Position numbers and translations under genes: made by a program | NCBI RefSeq assembly: GCF_055900595.2 | Contig: NZ_CM148325.1 | DNA length: 64,000 nucleotides | Reading direction: 5' to 3' (one strand) | Notes under the pieces: generated by a model | Databases searched by the model: none | What the model was told of the DNA's origin: nothing | What the model saw: only the letters and a program-made list of their open reading frames with translations | In this document: piece by piece, positions 13,300 to 35,588 of the stretch | How positions within the stretch are numbered: position 1 is the first letter of the stretch | How the letters are laid out: each line of letters starts with the position of its first letter

Positions 13300-13760
<461 letters not shown>

Positions 13761-27620: not shown

Positions 27621-28591
27621 TCTTCGCTTTCCGCCGCTTGTTCAGGCCGCAGTTGCTGCGACTGAGCAAGCTGGTGGCGAATTTCACGCAGCATTTCATC
27701 CAGCACATACTGGACCCGCCAGGGCTGGTATTCCCGTTTACGGAAGATAGCCACCAGATCCAGCCACCATTCATACGGTTGCTGAAAGCAGGGCACCAGC
27801 GTGCCGTCTTGCAGGTCGCTCTGCACACTTTTGTCTGGCGCAAACACAATCCCCAGGTGATTTCGTGCCAGCTCCAGCGCCGATTGCGTGTTGTCGCAAA
27901 CGTAATTTCCCTTCACGCGATAATCCCGCACCTCTTTACTCCCGGCGACGTTGAAGCGCCAGATATTCGCGTCGTCGATCATCATCGAGTCGATCAAAAT
28001 ACAGGAGTGATGTTCGAGTTCGTCAGGACGGCTAATGGGATGTTTCTCAAGATAGCGCTGACTGGCATAAGCGGTTACGGCATATTGCGTAATAAAACTG
28101 GCAACCAGCGATTCATCTTTTGGTGGAGCATAGCTGATTAAAACATCACAATCATCGGGAAATTCGACACCTTCATAAAAGGCATTACGCTCAAGATTGC
28201 AGGTTTTTAGCGATAAGGTGATATCACCGATATCTTTAATTTTATCGATAACATGTTTGGATAAATAGGTAATTATGCCGGTTGGGGCGTAGATGGTGAC
28301 CCGACCACGTTTCTCATGCTTATAATCTGCAATAAAATTATTAAGTTGCTCGTTTCTGTCCAGCATGTCGTTGATGTACGGTAACAGCGCGGTACCAAAA
28401 GGTGTGAGCATCAGCTGCCGGGTGGTTCGGTCAAAGACTTTTAAACCTACTTTTGATTCAAAATCAGCAAGATATTTGCTGACGTTGGCCTGTGCGAATC
28501 CAAGTACAGTCGCGGCATGGCTGATATTTTCACTGGCAGCGATTACCGAGATAATTTTTAACTCCCGGTACTTAAGTTGTAATTTTGTCAT
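27617..28591 (-). CDS. yiaU: LysR-family transcriptional regulator
   Basis: 324-aa ORF with N-terminal HTH; convergent with yiaV (4-bp overlap), divergent from yiaT. Confidence 0.85.
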
Positions 28592-28714
28592 CGCAACAGC
28601 CCAATTATATATAATTTTATATATTACTATATAAATATGAATCTTGCACCGGAGAAATTGTAAGCATTATTATGCCGACTCTTTTTTATCTTATTTTAAA
28701 ATGGAATACCGGAC

Positions 28715-29455
28715 ATGTTAATTAACCGCAATATTGTAGCGTTATTTACGTTGCCTTTTATGGCAAGCGCTACTGCTTCTGAATTATCCATTGGTGCTGG
28801 TGCAGCTTATAATGAATCGCCTTATCGTGGTTATAATGAAAATACAAAGGCAATTCCGCTGATTAGTTATGAAGGTGATTCTTTTTATGTTCGTCAGACC
28901 ACGTTAGGTTTTATTCTGTCGCAAAGTGAAAAAAATGAACTTAGCCTGACCGCATCCTGGATGCCGCTGGAATTTGACCCTGCAGATAATGACGATCATG
29001 CCATGCAACAGCTTGATAAGCGTGATAGTACGGCTATGGCGGGGGTTGCCTGGTATCACCACGAGCGTTGGGGAACCGTGAAAGCCTCTGCGGCTGCGGA
29101 CGTTCTGGATAACAGCAACGGCTGGGTGGGGGAGCTATCGGTATTTCACAAAATGCAGATAGGTCGCCTGTCGCTGACACCTGCACTGGGCGTTCTCTAT
29201 TATGACGAGAATTTCAGTGACTATTACTATGGCATTTCAGAGAGTGAGTCCCGTCGTAGCGGTCTGGCAAGTTATTCCGCGCAGGATGCTTGGGTGCCCT
29301 ATGTCAGCCTGACGGCAAAATACCCGATAGGAGAGCACATCGTATTGATGGCGAGTGCCGGATACAGCGAGCTGCCGGAAGAGATTACCGACAGCCCGAT
29401 GATTGATCGTAATGAGAGTTTTACCTTTGTCACCGGCGTGAGCTGGCGTTTTTAA
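28715..29455 (+). CDS. yiaT: MipA/OmpV-family outer-membrane protein
   Basis: 246-aa ORF with signal peptide and a terminal aromatic residue (…VSWRF). Confidence 0.8.
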   Translation: MLINRNIVALFTLPFMASATASELSIGAGAAYNESPYRGYNENTKAIPLISYEGDSFYVRQTTLGFILSQSEKNELSLTASWMPLEFDPADNDDHAMQQLDKRDSTAMAGVAWYHHERWGTVKASAAADVLDNSNGWVGELSVFHKMQIGRLSLTPALGVLYYDENFSDYYYGISESESRRSGLASYSAQDAWVPYVSLTAKYPIGEHIVLMASAGYSELPEEITDSPMIDRNESFTFVTGVSWRF

Positions 29456-29469
29456 TTTACCGGTGGATG

Positions 29470-29600
29470 TCGGTGCGGCTGGCCTACGCTCTCGCACTGA
29501 CCTTCAGGCTTGATAAGACGCGTTAAGCGTCGCATCAGGCAATGTGCACCCTACGTTGGATGCGGCGCGAGCGCCTTATCCAACCTACGGATGGCAATGC
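29470..29600. repeat. REP element pair between yiaT and the GH127 gene
   Basis: gcctacgctctcgcactgaccttcaggcttgataagacgcgttaagcgtcgcatcaggca ... ggatgcggcgcgagcgccttatccaacctacgg. Confidence 0.7.
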
Positions 29601-31555
29601 TTTTCCTCATTCACCCAGATCCGCATTTCGCCTTCACCCCGGTTAGCCCAGCTAAACCACGGGATAAATGTCAGAGTTTGCGGCTGGCGTTTGGCTGGCG
29701 CGCTGTCGTAATGCCACAGCGGTTGCTGCTCTGGATAGCTCTGTTCATACCGGTAACCCGGTGCCTGGATTAAGATCTTATGGCTGAACAATCCCTTACC
29801 TTCAAATGTCGTAAATGGCGCATCGGTGGGCAGCCACAGATTATGCAGTGACTCGCCGTTGTCGGCCTGTTCCAGGCAATACACCAGCGGGCCGCGCTGA
29901 ATCGCCACTTTTCCGGCGACGTGACGCACCAGCGGGTTACCGTAAACGCGACGTACCGGCATTGGCAACGTCAGATTCAGCGTGTCGCCCTCCTGCCATT
30001 CGCGGGTAATGTGCAAATACCCTTTACGAATATCCTGCTCGACCTCTTCCCCATTCAATGTAATCTGCGGCTGTGTGCACCAGTCCGGCAGACGTAAAGC
30101 CAGCGTATGACGCACCGGCTGGGGCGATTCAACCGCAATTGTCACCTGTTCCTGCCACGGATAGTTTCCGCTAACCCGCAGACGCAGCGTGCCATTTTCT
30201 ACCGGCACTTCCATGCTGTTTCCTGCGTAGATGTTGATATACAACGCATCTTCACGCGGCGTGTAGAGATAATGACCAATCGAGGTTAGCACGCGGGCGA
30301 TATTTGGCGGACAACAAGCGCAACCAAACCAACGCTGGCGGATCGGCTTAACGTGATCGTAGATATGGTTGAATTTCAGCGATTTTGGATGTACTTCCAG
30401 CGGATTCACATAGAAGAAATGTTTGCCATCCAGCGCCATGCCGCCGAGCACGGTGTTGTACAGTGCGCGCTCCATCACATCGGCATATTGACTGTCGCCT
30501 TCCATTTCCAGCATTCGCCGGGCGAACATCATCAGGCCGATGGAAGCACAGCTTTCGGCGTATACCGTGTCATTCGGCAGATCGTAATCGCTGCTGAACG
30601 CTTCGCCGCTGCTTTGTGAGCCAATGCCGCCGGTAATATATAACTGACGCTGGGCCATATTGTTCCACAGCCGCAGGCAGTCCTGACGCTTGCTTTCATC
30701 GTGACTTAAACGCGCGAGATGCGCGACGCCGGTCATCAGGTAGACAAAACGTACCGCGTGACCAATGGCGGTTTGCTGCTGTGCGATGGGCAAATGTGCC
30801 TGGCTGTAGGCTTTGTCTTTCACCATCCACGCCGGGCCGTAGGTGTGCCAGTGCGAGGTCTGCCCGCGCTTTTCATATTCCTGGTCGTAATAGTGCGGTT
30901 GCGCACCACGCTGTTCGACAAAATAGTTCGTCAGCGCCAGGTAGCGCGGCTCTTCGGTCACTTCATACAGGCGCATTAGTGCCAGTTCAATTTCCGGGTG
31001 ACCAGGATAACCGTGTAACTTACTTTCACCTGGACCAAATACGCTGTCGATATGATCGGCCAGACGGCAAACCACTTCCAGCAAGCGCCGCTTGCCCGTG
31101 GCCTGGAAGAAGGCGACTCCGGCTTCAATCAGATGACCGGCGCAGTAAAGTTCATGACACTCCGCCAGATTGCTCCAGCGTTCTTTGGGCGCTTTTACCG
31201 TAAAGTAAGTATTGAGATAGCCATCTTCGCACTGGGCGGAAGCGACCAGTTCGATTACCTCGTCAGCAGTTTTTTCCAGTTCGGCATCCGGCTTCTGGCA
31301 CAGCGACCAGGCTACCGCTTCCAGCCATTTGGCGACGTCGCTGTCCTGAAACACCATCCCGTAAAATTCACCGTCTTGCAGTCCTGCGGCAATGCGAAAG
31401 TTTTCAATCGCATGGCTGGGTTCCGCTTCTGGGATACGATCGTTCAAGGCATCCCACTGATAAGGAATCACCACGTCGCGGACCAGTTGTTGGTACTGAC
31501 CGAGGAACGGATCGCTGACCGTCAGTTTATGCAGATCGACTTCCGAAATGTTCAT
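29585..31555 (-). CDS. Glycoside hydrolase family 127-like (DUF1680) protein, candidate beta-L-arabinofuranosidase (about 656 aa)
   Basis: ORF 29585..31603; start taken at MNISEVDL with SD aaggag 8 nt upstream; large soluble protein with Cys-rich C-terminal part (FGCACCPPN); family assignment from recalled family features. Confidence 0.7.
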   Translation of the reverse strand: MNISEVDLHKLTVSDPFLGQYQQLVRDVVIPYQWDALNDRIPEAEPSHAIENFRIAAGLQDGEFYGMVFQDSDVAKWLEAVAWSLCQKPDAELEKTADEVIELVASAQCEDGYLNTYFTVKAPKERWSNLAECHELYCAGHLIEAGVAFFQATGKRRLLEVVCRLADHIDSVFGPGESKLHGYPGHPEIELALMRLYEVTEEPRYLALTNYFVEQRGAQPHYYDQEYEKRGQTSHWHTYGPAWMVKDKAYSQAHLPIAQQQTAIGHAVRFVYLMTGVAHLARLSHDESKRQDCLRLWNNMAQRQLYITGGIGSQSSGEAFSSDYDLPNDTVYAESCASIGLMMFARRMLEMEGDSQYADVMERALYNTVLGGMALDGKHFFYVNPLEVHPKSLKFNHIYDHVKPIRQRWFGCACCPPNIARVLTSIGHYLYTPREDALYINIYAGNSMEVPVENGTLRLRVSGNYPWQEQVTIAVESPQPVRHTLALRLPDWCTQPQITLNGEEVEQDIRKGYLHITREWQEGDTLNLTLPMPVRRVYGNPLVRHVAGKVAIQRGPLVYCLEQADNGESLHNLWLPTDAPFTTFEGKGLFSHKILIQAPGYRYEQSYPEQQPLWHYDSAPAKRQPQTLTFIPWFSWANRGEGEMRIWVNEEKHCHP

Positions 31556-31565
31556 CTTGTGCTCC

Positions 31566-32966
31566 TTAAGGCTGTACATGACGCTGACGCAGGTCGCTAG
31601 CAATGCGTGACATCATAGGGTTATTGAGTTTGCAAAAGCGGATCGCCATCGCCAGCAGCAGGTGGAACAGCGCAGGCAGCAATGTTTCCATCGCCGCGAT
31701 CCCGCCAAGCGAACTGGCGGTCTGGTTTTCCACGCCTGGCTGGTAGGCGACAAAAATAAACAGCAGGCTGATGATCCCGGCGCTGGAGGCCCAGGCCAGC
31801 TTGATGAAAAACAGATTGAAGGCGAAGTTCATGCCGGAAGAACGTACGCGGGTTTTCCACTCGCCGTAGTCATCGGCAAAGGCCATCAATGAGAAGTGCA
31901 ATGGCAATGTGAAGCCAAGAATCACGCCATTACCAAGGATCACCGCCAGCCACAGCGTTTGATAAGCCGGGCCAGAAGGCAGGAACCACATCAACACCGC
32001 CAGCGCGGCGAGGAGCAGGTTGGTGTAGTAGTAAATTTTGACGGTATCGAAACGTCGCGTTAACGGGCTGACAATCACCGAGCCGATAATGGAGGCGAAG
32101 GTGACCATAGTGAAGAACAGCGACGTGTAGCCCGTACTGCCTTGTAAGACGTAGGTAATGAAGTACATATACCCACCGCCGCGAATATTAAAGACGTTAA
32201 TCAGCAGGAAAGACATGACCAGCATCAGCAGCAGTTGGTCGTTGTTTCGCAGCCCGGCAAGATGTTCGCGCAGGGTAAATTTCCCCATTGTGGAGAGTGG
32301 CACCCGTTCACGAACCCAGAAGAAACAGCACAGGAACATCACCACAGCGATGGCGCACAGCACGCCGACGCCCAGTTGATAGCCGCGCGCGGCATTACCC
32401 TGACCGAAGAGATCTACCATCCACGGCAAGCCAACCGAAACCAGAAATCCTGCCACGCCGCAGAGAACGAATCGCCAGGACTGGCAGGAGATCACTTCAT
32501 TGTGGCGGGTGGTCATGGTGTTGATCAGCGCGCAGTACGGCACGTTGATGGCGGTATAACCGACTGAAAGGAGCAGGTAAGTGCCGAACGCCCAGGCGAT
32601 TTTTACTCCCATGCTGGCATCTGGCACGGTGAACGTCAGGATGCCGATAATGCCGATGGGAATGGCAATCCACAACTGCCACGGACGAAAGCGCCCCCAG
32701 CGACTTTGCGTCCGGTCGGCAATGACGCCCATCACCGGGTCGGAGATGGCATCAAACACGCGCAGTGCAATAAACATCGTGCCGACCAGCGCCGGAGTTA
32801 AGCCAAAAACGTCGGTGTAGAAAAAGGTGAGAAAGTTCATGATCAGGCAAGTTATTACGGTGCCGCCTGCGTCACCCAGGCCGTAGCCTATTTTTTCCCG
32901 TACAGATAACGCATCGTCAATTTTACCTTTAGCGATATCAGCGGTAGTAATCGGTGTAGAGGTCAT
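31566..32966 (-). CDS. GPH-family (MelB-like) glycoside-pentoside-hexuronide:cation symporter
   Basis: 466-aa polytopic membrane protein with N-terminal [18 protein letters not shown]; its stop lies in the RBS of the downstream GH127 gene. Confidence 0.75.
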
Positions 32967-33191
32967 AGATATTCCTCGTGAATAGGGAGCAATTTTTAGT
33001 TTTATTGAAATGACATGATTAATTCTGCCGTGAACGGGAATATCAACAAGGCGAGAAAAGAGTAAAAAAAGGTGACGATTCCGACCTGAATTTAAAAGTG
33101 TGAATTGGATCAGGTGAAATTAATGTTTTTGATTAATAATCAAAAGGTAATGTGTTTAATCATTAATGAATAAGCGGGAAATTACATATCA

Positions 33192-34007
33192 ATGCTCGAA
33201 TTATCCATGACGTTACCGATTAAAGTGCAAAATGGTGGATTATTTATTTCCCGTGGCGTAGGGAGGCATCCGGCAAGGCGGCTGGAGTCATGGGAAATTA
33301 TCTTTGTCGAAAAAGGTCGATTAGCGATTCAGGAAGAAGAGCGGATATTTCTGGTCGATGCGGGAGAGAGTTTATTACTCTGGCCGAACCGACAGCATGT
33401 TGGGGTAGAGGATTTTCCCGCCGATCTCAAATTTTACTGGCTGCATTTTGAGGTTAAAGCGCCGGATAGCGACCCGCGCTGGCTCACTCATCTTAGCGTG
33501 CCGCAACAAACGAAGGTTGCCGATCCGCAGGCGCTGGTGGCCCTGTTTCGCCAGTTCTTAAGCGAACAGGAAAAGCATCAACGCACTCCGGCGCTGGAGT
33601 TTATTGTGCTGCTGATTTTGCAGCAACTCACCCGTGACGCGCGTCTTGATGAACAGGCCGATGCCGCAGGTACCACGCTTGCCTGGAAAGCGCAGAAACT
33701 GATCCGCACGCAATATCATCGCCCGCTTTCCACGGCGCTTTTAGCCCGCGAGCTGTACTGCAATGCCGATTATCTTGGGCGCGTCTATCGGCGGGTGTTT
33801 CATCTGACGCTTACAGAAGCAATCCACCGCCAGCGGGTGCGCGAAGCCGAAAAGCTGTTAATTAGCGACGCGCGCTCGCTCACGGAAGTGGCGGCGTTGT
33901 GCGGGTTTAATGACGTTGGCTATTTCCGACAGATTTTTCGCAAACACACCGGATTAACGCCAGCTGCGTGGAAGCGACGTTACAGCAAGGAACATATCAA
34001 TTCGTAG
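33192..34007 (+). CDS. AraC/XylS-family transcriptional regulator
   Basis: 271-aa ORF with a cupin-like N-terminal part and C-terminal HTH; divergent from the symporter gene; start may be 33207. Confidence 0.75.
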   Translation: MLELSMTLPIKVQNGGLFISRGVGRHPARRLESWEIIFVEKGRLAIQEEERIFLVDAGESLLLWPNRQHVGVEDFPADLKFYWLHFEVKAPDSDPRWLTHLSVPQQTKVADPQALVALFRQFLSEQEKHQRTPALEFIVLLILQQLTRDARLDEQADAAGTTLAWKAQKLIRTQYHRPLSTALLARELYCNADYLGRVYRRVFHLTLTEAIHRQRVREAEKLLISDARSLTEVAALCGFNDVGYFRQIFRKHTGLTPAAWKRRYSKEHINS

Positions 34008-34038
34008 TGTCGGGGCAATGAAGCCCCGGCGTGAGAGA

Positions 34039-34734
34039 TTACTGCCCGTAATAGGCATTGGCCCCATGCTTACGCAGGTAGTGCTTATCCAGCAGTTCGT
34101 TTTGCATGGCAGGGAGCTGTGGTGCAAGCTGGCGCGAGAACAGGCCCATATAGGCGCACTCTTCCAGCACTACGGCATTATGCACGGCATCGGCGGCGTT
34201 TTTTCCCCAGGCGAACGGGCCGTGAGAATGCACCAGTACCGCCGGGATTTGTGCCGGGTTCAACCCACGCTCTTCGAAGGTTTTAATGATCACTTCGCCG
34301 GTCTGGTATTCATACTCGCCGTTGATCTCCTCTACGGTCATCTGTCGCGTGCAGGGGATGGCACCATAGAAATAATCGGCGTGCGTGGTGCCCCAGGCGG
34401 GGAGATCCAGCCCGGCCTGTGACCAGATGGTGGCGTGGCGCGAGTGGGTATGCACAATACCGCCAATTTCTGCATAGCGACGATAAAGCGCCAGATGCGT
34501 TGGCGTATCGGACGAGGGCTTTTTGCTACCTTCCACCACCTTGCCGCTGGCTATCTCAACCACCACCATATCGTCGGCGGTCATCACGTCGTACTCGACG
34601 CCGGAAGGTTTGATTACCATCCATTGCCGCGTCTCGTCTACCGCACTGACATTGCCCCAGGTAAACGTCACCAGATGGTGAGCGGGAAGCGCCAGATTTG
34701 CCGCCAGTACGTCGGCTTTCAGTTGTTCTAACAT
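34039..34734 (-). CDS. sgbE: L-ribulose-5-phosphate 4-epimerase
   Basis: 231-aa class II aldolase/AraD-like ORF. Confidence 0.88.
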
Positions 34735-35588
34735 ATAAATCCGGCCTCCTGCATACGCGCTTCAATCCAGCGCCGCGCCTGAATAATCTCCAGCACCGGC
34801 TCTTTGGCTTTTTCGGTCCACATCTCAATCAGAAATGATCCGCGATAGTTCAGTTCATGCAGCGTTTTGAAGATACCAACGAAATCGACGCAGCCTTCGC
34901 CAAACGGCACGTCGCGGAACTGTCCGGGGCTATGATCGGTCACTGGCTGGGTATCTTTCAGGTGGATGGCGGCGATACGGTCAATGCCCAGTTTCAGTTC
35001 GGCGGGAACATCATTGCCCCACGCGCTAAGGTTGCCGACGTCCGGGTAAACAGTGAACCACGGCGAAGCGAGTATCTCGTCCCATTTTTTCCATTTGCTG
35101 ATGGAGTTCATAAACGCGGTATCCATAATCTCCACCGCCAGCATCACCTGCGCGGCGGCTGCCTGTTCAACCGCCCACGCCAGCCCTTCGGCAAAACGTT
35201 GCTGCGTGCCTTCGTCATGGGCTTCGTAATAGACGTCGTAGCCCGCCAGTTGAATGGTGCGAATACCGAGATCGCGCGCCAGACGAATTGCTTTACTCAT
35301 GATCTCCCGTGCTCGCTGGCGTGCCGCGTCGTCACGGCTACCAAAGGGAAAACGACGATGTGCGGACAGGCACATCGACGGGATCCCAACACCCGTTTCG
35401 ATCATCGCGGCAACCAGCGAAGTCCTTTGTGCGGCGCTCCAGTCAAGGCGCGACAGACGCTCGTCGGTTTCATCCACCGACATTTCGACAAAATCAAAAC
35501 CGCAGCTTTTTGCCAGCACCAGCCGCTCCGGCCAGGAGAGATCTTTCGCCAGCGCTTTTTCATAAATCCCTAACGGATGATTACGCAC
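34728..35588 (-). CDS. sgbU: L-ribulose-5-phosphate 3-epimerase (putative)
   Basis: ORF 34728..35621; GTG start at 35588 gives 286 aa ([23 protein letters not shown]...). Confidence 0.85.

Follow-up and report, generated by a model that had tools for sequence, protein, structure and literature searches.

The closest described relatives of the locus reported here belong to systems for the use of β-L-arabinofuranosides. In Bifidobacterium longum the extracellular enzyme HypBA2 frees β-arabinobiose from extensin-type glycoproteins and the intracellular HypBA1, a member of glycoside hydrolase family 127 (GH127), splits the β-arabinobiose (PMC8106489). In some bifidobacteria the predicted BauR2 regulon joins a HypBA1 ortholog to BauT, a symporter of the GPH family, predicted to act on β-arabino-oligosaccharides (PMC5928203). 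Another solved GH127 enzyme, that of Geobacillus stearothermophilus T6 (PDB 4QJY/4QK0), is the ‘Ara127N’ of Lansky et al. 2014, cited in PMC7889515. Here we describe a three-gene module in a stretch of 64,000 nucleotides (the window) from assembly GCF_055900595.2, contig NZ_CM148325.1, where genes for a GH127 protein, a GPH symporter and a divergently transcribed AraC-family regulator lie between yiaT and sgbE. It seems on balance probable, from the protein families and the residues conserved in them, that the module imports a small β-L-arabinofuranoside and hydrolyses it in the cytoplasm; the more general reading, uptake plus hydrolysis of a glycoside, we regard as close to certain. The module is an ancestral, vertically inherited enterobacterial locus, functional where present, and deletion has removed it from K-12 and from more than half of the E. 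coli genomes sequenced.

The layout was derived from the list of open reading frames and from RefSeq's annotation of an E. coli genome colinear with the window; the two were concordant. The features of the module itself are:

29585–31555, minus strand: GH127 gene, encoding 656 residues (open reading frames, RefSeq, Pfam).
31562–31568, minus strand: stop codon of the symporter gene (TAA, 31568–31566) overlapping the ribosome-binding site of the GH127 gene (AAGGAG, 31567–31562), read from the sequence.
31566–32966, minus strand: GPH symporter gene, encoding 466 residues (open reading frames, RefSeq, TIGR00792).
Between the symporter and regulator genes: an AT-rich gap of 225 bp.
33192–34007, plus strand: AraC/XylS-family regulator gene, encoding 271 residues and divergent from the symporter–GH127 operon (Pfam).

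All three open reading frames, and the symporter stop codon within the following ribosome-binding site, are as a preliminary description made from the letters of the window had reported them. The ATG of the GH127 gene starts 6 nucleotides past the AAGGAG and the intercistronic gap is 10 nucleotides; together with the overlap of stop codon and ribosome-binding site this implies that the symporter and GH127 genes are co-transcribed as an operon.

The 656-residue protein carries all three Pfam domains of its family, PF07944 (residues 12–427, 7e-112), PF20736 (438–532) and PF20737 (534–649), and so has the GH127 architecture of a catalytic (α/α)6 domain, a middle domain and a C-terminal domain. 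It matches the Geobacillus enzyme (PDB 4QJY) over residues 11–650 with 55% identity (E = 1e-236) and HypBA1 (PDB 3WKW) with 45% identity (2.6e-153). In HypBA1 Cys417 is the nucleophile and Glu322 the acid/base, the zinc is held by Cys340, Cys417, Cys418 and Glu338, and His142 contacts the O5 of the sugar (PMC8106489, PMC10728902). All of the catalytic and zinc residues are kept in the alignment, with Glu318 corresponding to Glu322, Glu334 to Glu338, Cys336 to Cys340, Cys414 to Cys417 and Cys415 to Cys418, and the O5-binding histidine is conserved as His134. The GH127 assignment made in the preliminary description, which had been staked beforehand on a search for these residues, is thus borne out by domains, full-length matches and catalytic site alike. 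These two chains, both deposited as β-L-arabinofuranosidases, are the best matches and the only full-length ones; GH127/GH146 chains that bear other names give weaker matches, which begin only at about residue 250. The NCBIfam equivalog model for aceric acid hydrolase (NF049879) was considered as an identity and rejected, as it scores 455.3 bits, far under its cut-off of 950, with the best stretch confined to residues 252–649. A hydropathy scan found neither a signal peptide nor a hydrophobic N-terminus, and the protein is accordingly cytoplasmic. We predict that it is a retaining β-L-arabinofuranosidase with a zinc-bound cysteine nucleophile.

The symporter passes the model of the GPH family, TIGR00792 (333.4 bits against a cut-off of 231.35, residues 25–462), in agreement with its earlier description as a glycoside symporter of this class. 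It aligns with structures of MelB over residues 20–460 and has some 11–12 hydrophobic segments by a crude hydropathy scan. The nearest named NCBIfam models are YagG, the YicJ type and MelB, and all of the models for named transporters stay under their cut-offs (YagG 358 against 610 bits, YicJ-type 327 against 836, MelB 208 against 456 and the glucuronide transporter UidB 195 against 528), so that by sequence the protein is a separate branch of the family. Of the residues of MelB, Arg52, Asp55, Asp59 and Thr121 are kept (the latter three as Asp72, Asp76 and Thr138), while Asn58 becomes Ser75, Asp124 becomes asparagine and Lys18/Asp19 become Gly-Thr. Asp55, Asn58, Asp59 and Thr121 are residues that we take to form the Na+ site of MelB. 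The changes at Lys18/Asp19 and Asp124 argue that the sugar is not melibiose, and the serine in place of Asn58 gives a hint that the coupling ion may be H+.

The regulator combines an N-terminal cupin-type ligand domain (PF02311, residues 26–132, 1.5e-8) with a C-terminal double helix-turn-helix (PF12833, residues 184–263, 4e-19; also PF00165), as expected of the AraC family to which it had been assigned. Its best NCBIfam match is the model of AraC itself (NF007860), but with 61.2 bits where that model requires 208 the protein is no AraC ortholog. In a search by sequence for solved relatives of its sensor domain, meant for a comparison of arabinose-binding residues, only the DNA-binding domain was matched.

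Set beside the described systems, the locus shares parts with each. The Geobacillus enzyme is alike along its full length and in its three-domain layout, and both proteins are intracellular. Its gene presumably lies in a large arabinan-utilisation cluster with ABC transporters, whereas in the E. coli module the enzyme has no partners beyond a GPH symporter and an AraC-type regulator. With HypBA1 (PDB 3WKW/3WKX) the protein shares the cysteine nucleophile, the glutamate acid/base and the Cys3-Glu zinc site, and the B. longum system, like the one proposed here, imports a small β-arabinoside for hydrolysis in the cytoplasm (PMC8106489). In B. longum JCM 1217, however, the parts are HypBA2, which is an extracellular arabinobiosidase of family GH121, an ABC importer and a regulator of the LacI family (PMC8106489, PMC5928203); the enterobacterial module lacks any extracellular enzyme and works with a GPH symporter and an activator of the AraC type. 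The BauR2 regulon likewise pairs a cytoplasmic GH127 enzyme with a GPH-family symporter, BauT being compared here by description, but it is itself only a prediction, is governed by a LacI-family regulator and belongs to a different phylum. Within E. coli the yicJ-yicI and yagG-yagH pairs also place a GPH symporter gene first and a cytoplasmic glycosidase gene second, and supply two of the nearest symporter models, though with the module's symporter under those equivalog cut-offs and with a hydrolase from another family.

To define the control region of the operon, 70 regulator–symporter intergenic regions from different species were aligned. The operon-proximal half is conserved and the regulator-proximal half poorly so. 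The conserved features are:

33022–33114, minus strand: conserved control region of the operon, from this alignment.
33114–33099, minus strand: CRP-like site with an invariant GATC-N4-TCACA, which fits the CRP consensus TGTGATCTAGATCACA and has a single strong half-site (TCACA at 33103–33099).
33087–33044, minus strand: near-invariant 44-bp block, aGGTCGGAATcgTCa.CTTTTTaTACTttT..cTt.CCTTGTTG, containing GTCGGAAT at 33085–33078.
33049–33044, minus strand: putative weak -35, TTGTTG, at the end of the 44-bp block.
Between the block with its -35 and the -10: a variable spacer of 16 nucleotides.
33027–33022, minus strand: putative -10, CAGAAT (conserved as CA.AAT).

The 44-bp block is likely to be the binding site of the regulator, overlapping the weak -35, and from the conservation we propose a weak, activator-dependent promoter with a CRP site upstream. 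This would resemble the araBAD promoter, in which an activator block likewise abuts the -35 and a CRP site lies upstream. A direct repeat in the block, CTT[T/G]TT with 21-bp spacing, was considered as a pair of half-sites and set aside as too weak. In the regulator-proximal half, at 33121–33170, there is an AT-rich direct repeat of 23 nucleotides (TAATGTTTTTGATTAATAATCAA / TAATGTGTTTAATCATTAATGAA, 27-bp spacing) with overlapping palindromes; it is not conserved outside Escherichia and may be the regulator's own promoter/operator, or chance.

Some expression data exist for members of the module. In a Salmonella strain grown on lactulose the orthologous GH127 gene is up about 8-fold (log fold change 3.05) and the regulator gene about 3-fold (log fold change 1.53), together with aldB and mel genes (PMC13304739 supplement), and in E. 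coli the transcript of the GH127 protein WP_001026900 has been detected and rises together with lacZ under physical stress (PMC6561948). Both observations are compatible with control of the module by CRP. The former bears also on the substrate, as the same architecture could serve another one: a different furanoside, an unusual sugar or, as has been suggested for Salmonella, a disaccharide, for example lactulose. GH127 covers more than one specificity, the aceric acid model does register a match, and the sugar site of the symporter differs from that of MelB at Lys18/Asp19 and Asp124, all of which would fit such a reading. That match is far short of equivalog level, however, and the best and only full-length matches are to β-L-arabinofuranosidases whose catalytic and zinc residues and O5-binding histidine are all kept; the induction on lactulose coincides with that of aldB and mel, so that release from catabolite repression would explain it equally well. 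We therefore consider another substrate rather unlikely and favour a β-L-arabinofuranoside.

The following scheme is inferred as regards substrate, coupling ion, effector and the functions of the promoter elements. The AraC-type regulator would sense a sugar through its cupin domain and, with cAMP-CRP, activate the divergent promoter of the two-gene operon. The GPH symporter would take up a small β-L-arabinofuranoside; the likeliest substrates would be β-1,2-arabinobiose or a hydroxyproline-linked β-arabinoside, freed by other microbes from plant extensins, lectins or arabinan, and these are the best candidates; the closest characterised system, that of B. longum, works in this way. Since the GH127 enzyme lacks a signal peptide, the natural order of events is that the substrate is first taken up and then cleaved in the cytoplasm, where the zinc-bound Cys414 would act as nucleophile and Glu318 as acid/base. 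The product, L-arabinose, would then pass into the ordinary araBAD pathway, by which L-arabinose normally enters metabolism and which lies outside this window. As an assignment by homology, the uptake and hydrolysis of an L-arabinofuranoside put forward in the preliminary description holds up, with a GH127 enzyme complete in its catalytic residues, a GPH symporter and an AraC-type regulator.

Several points weigh against this scheme. The locus has no extracellular enzyme to release the substrate, so that the module would depend on material freed by other organisms. The literature searched gave no enzyme, transport or growth data, and no biochemical or genetic study, for any enterobacterial GH127 member. 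The hydrolase does match the aceric acid hydrolase model at 455 bits, in a family with other specificities too, and a generic sigma-70 scan called no promoter in the control region. The module is missing from more than half of E. coli genomes, and any benefit would thus be conditional. In Salmonella enterica NZ_CP026327.1 (213058–216092; PMC13304739 supplement) the GH127 gene (213058–215013, minus strand) lies 263 bp from an AraC-type gene (215277–216092, plus strand) with no symporter annotated between them, while Salmonella diarizonae (locus L027) has the symporter; it seems that the symporter was deleted in the former strain.

The module is flanked by the following features:

28715–29455, plus strand: yiaT (open reading frames, RefSeq annotation).
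29504–29588, minus strand: pair of repetitive extragenic palindromic (REP) sequences in opposite orientation, resembling a bacterial interspersed mosaic element, just 3′ of the GH127 stop codon (tail motifs, hairpins, Rfam).
34009–34030, no strand assigned: G+C-rich, terminator-like hairpin without REP, at the point where the regulator gene and sgbE converge.
34039–34734, minus strand: sgbE, labelled araD by PGAP.

The REP tail motif occurs at 29504–29520 (minus strand) and 29572–29588 (plus strand), two of seven in the window where 0.06 would be expected by chance. Both arms fold into strong hairpins (z = -3.5), and the pair matches the REP-derived Rfam family naRNA4 (RF02564) with 67.8 bits, above the gathering score, which is 59.5; it probably sits in the 3′ end of the symporter–GH127 transcript. 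On the side of sgbE the scan of the window for the tail motif gave none at 34009–34030, where the hairpin folds at -17.7 kcal/mol (z = -4.9). The module had been described as bounded by REP elements, and this is correct towards yiaT only. Other identities for the locus (defence system, mobile element, structured RNA) were considered and dropped; the Rfam scan of 28000–35000 returned nothing besides the REP pair. The generic sigma-70 and terminator scan gave only weak terminator-like matches, inside genes. Elsewhere in the window, at 13371–13657, three REP tail motifs in the same orientation lie exactly 135 bp apart (13371, 13506 and 13641) and look like a tandem array of REP-containing units.

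To investigate the history of the module, one genome per species was scanned, which gave 80 loci with a GH127 gene encoding a protein of 72–97% identity. The intact trio of regulator, symporter and hydrolase is present in 68 of them, among these loci from Citrobacter, Klebsiella, Raoultella, Enterobacter, Lelliottia, Leclercia, Kluyvera, Kosakonia and Phytobacter, and further from Salmonella diarizonae, Pantoea, Mixta, Buttiauxella, Mangrovibacter and Rouxiella. The order lyxK-sgbH-sgbU-sgbE, regulator, symporter–hydrolase, yiaT-yiaU recurs in Citrobacter, Enterobacter, Lelliottia, Pseudocitrobacter and Huaxiibacter. Next to the trio stands sgbE in 26 of the 68 loci, avtA (with malS and bax) and no yia/sgb operon in 20, and some other context in 22, and aldB and selAB are within reach on its other side in 43. 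The backbone is accordingly bax-malS-avtA-[yiaJ…sgbE]-[module]-[yiaT…yiaW]-aldB-yiaY-selBA, and among these loci the module is more consistently present than either of the variable blocks beside it. In species whose module does not stand beside sgbE, no arabinose-catabolism genes were found next to it; the neighbours are unrelated housekeeping genes (avtA, malS, bax, aldB, selAB, trp, uxa) and uninformative on the substrate. Synonymous divergence (dS) is 0.04–0.13 within E. coli, 0.42–0.61 to E. whittamii and saturated beyond, rising with taxonomic distance. The ratio dN/dS is 0.02–0.12 for the GH127 gene, 0.02–0.10 for the symporter gene and 0.06–0.15 for the regulator gene, and 0.02–0.12 within E. 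coli alone, which indicates strong purifying selection.

The preliminary description saw in the module an accessory insertion whose hydrolase would supply pentose to the adjacent sgb/lyx/yia genes for L-xylulose and L-ribulose-5-phosphate. Horizontal acquisition of this kind would account for the lack of intact genes in K-12 and in 57% of complete E. coli genomes, and the module does abut sgbE, whose product, L-ribulose-5-phosphate 4-epimerase, catalyses a step also needed for L-arabinose catabolism. We nevertheless judge it very unlikely, as it is largely refuted by the data. The G+C content of the module (0.53–0.56) equals that of its flanks, the list of open reading frames shows no integrase or insertion-sequence element, none of the copies in E. 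coli is on a plasmid, the site is occupied with identical gene order in five other genera, dS follows species distance, and the K-12 site carries decayed gene fragments; an acquired genomic islet was rejected on these grounds. The tie to sgb/lyx/yia fares no better. The trio stands beside sgbE in fewer than half of the loci, an O157:H7 strain keeps the module without yiaK-sgbE, the module would have a promoter of its own, and the regulator gene converges with sgbE on the hairpin at 34009–34030. The adjacency of sgbE is inherited synteny and no sign of a shared pathway or functional link, and the module is accessory in the pangenome sense only. A different history is suggested for Bradyrhizobium spp. 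(loci L073–L077 and L079), where a lone GH127 gene encodes a protein 72% identical to that of E. coli in an unrelated context; no homologs of the module's symporter or regulator were found in the flanks fetched, and such identity between Alpha- and Gammaproteobacteria suggests horizontal transfer.

In K-12, which the preliminary description gave as having nothing at this position, there is indeed no intact gene of the module, yet remnants are left. Compared by BLAST with the window, the K-12 locus shows in succession yiaT with the following 27 nucleotides (to window position 29482), a 190-nucleotide piece of the GH127 gene (29693–29882, 88.9% identity), the last ~100 nucleotides of the regulator gene (from 33904) and sgbE. 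The GH127 fragment is joined directly to the regulator remnant and RefSeq marks both as incomplete coding sequences; they are the pseudogenes ysaD and ysaC, between yiaS (sgbE) and yiaT (PMC12361893). Because decayed fragments of both end genes remain, two deletions must have occurred, one of 29483–29692, flanked by GGCTGG microhomology, which took out the REP pair, and one of 29883–33903.

At least 80% of the module is present in 2313 of 5426 complete E. coli genomes (43%), always on the chromosome; fragments only are found in about 2470, and of those listed almost all have the K-12 type; 641 genomes have nothing. Other changes surround it. O157:H7 F6667 (locus L083, 7493–9025) keeps yiaT and the intact module while the whole yiaK-yiaO-lyxK-sgbHUE operon is gone, a 141-nucleotide fragment of yiaJ directly following the regulator gene, then ysaA and avtA. 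Strain N1131 (L084, 3306–3918) has a hicAB toxin–antitoxin pair in place of yiaT-yiaW beside the module, and in Seattle 1946 (L085, 2415–4695) aldB is joined straight to sgbE, the module and yiaT-yiaW being absent. The region is a hotspot of deletion and replacement. Repeated independent losses such as the double deletion of K-12, that from yiaW through the module in Seattle 1946 and the apparent loss of the symporter in the Salmonella strain might be taken to mean that the module is a decaying relic without current function in E. coli. This we hold to be highly improbable, since the three open reading frames are intact, dN/dS is low even within the species, the promoter block is nearly invariant across genera, 2313 genomes carry the module and the GH127 transcript is detected and regulated in E. 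coli (PMC6561948).

The window was also compared with its closest complete genome, the colinear strain 2013C-4282 (L086); up to about 25.4 kb of the window the two are out of register. Between 26000 and 48000 the divergence is mosaic, with 1–7 mismatches per kb at 26–32 kb (yiaW-yiaT, GH127 and the larger part of the symporter gene), 11–13 at 32–34 kb and 14–51 at 34–42 kb (sgb/lyx/yia), which probably places a boundary of recombination close to the regulator gene. Upstream in the same genome (1–4925 and 13466–18161 of L086) are a YadA-like adhesin gene and genes for an RHS core protein and an Imm57 immunity protein, between yibH and yibF.

RefSeq already names the three products as ‘glycoside hydrolase family 127 protein’, ‘MFS transporter’ and ‘AraC family transcriptional regulator’. 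GH127 is a variably present CAZy family in E. coli, with a prevalence of 98.8–100% in two clades and 29.5–67% in others (10.1101/2021.10.19.464957), and it has been reported, with other genes, to co-segregate with invasiveness in inflammatory bowel disease isolates, its function there being assumed from HypBA1 (PMC11879602, commentary PMC11954838). What is added here is a corrected evolutionary history, in which the module was lost and not gained and need not go with sgb, together with the architecture of the conserved promoter and a map of the catalytic residues. We put forward only tentatively that Enterobacteriaceae cross-feed on β-1,2-arabinobiose or hydroxyproline-arabinosides freed from extensins by bifidobacteria (through the GH121 enzyme HypBA2) or by plant-associated microbes, that the patchy presence in E. 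coli makes the module a niche determinant and that its regulator is the first known sensor of β-L-arabinofuranosides. Such a role would fit the clade-specific prevalence and the reported co-segregation with epithelial invasiveness.

The locus is thus a deletion hotspot in an ancestral region and not an acquired islet, and the neighbourhood of sgbE is unfit for inferring its function. The absence of the module from K-12 may explain why no experimental work on it was found for any enterobacterium, though 43% of complete E. coli genomes and most genera of Enterobacteriaceae carry it. Defining the substrate would add one carbon source to the accessory metabolic map of E. coli and would offer a mechanistic approach to a gene flagged repeatedly in pangenome work.

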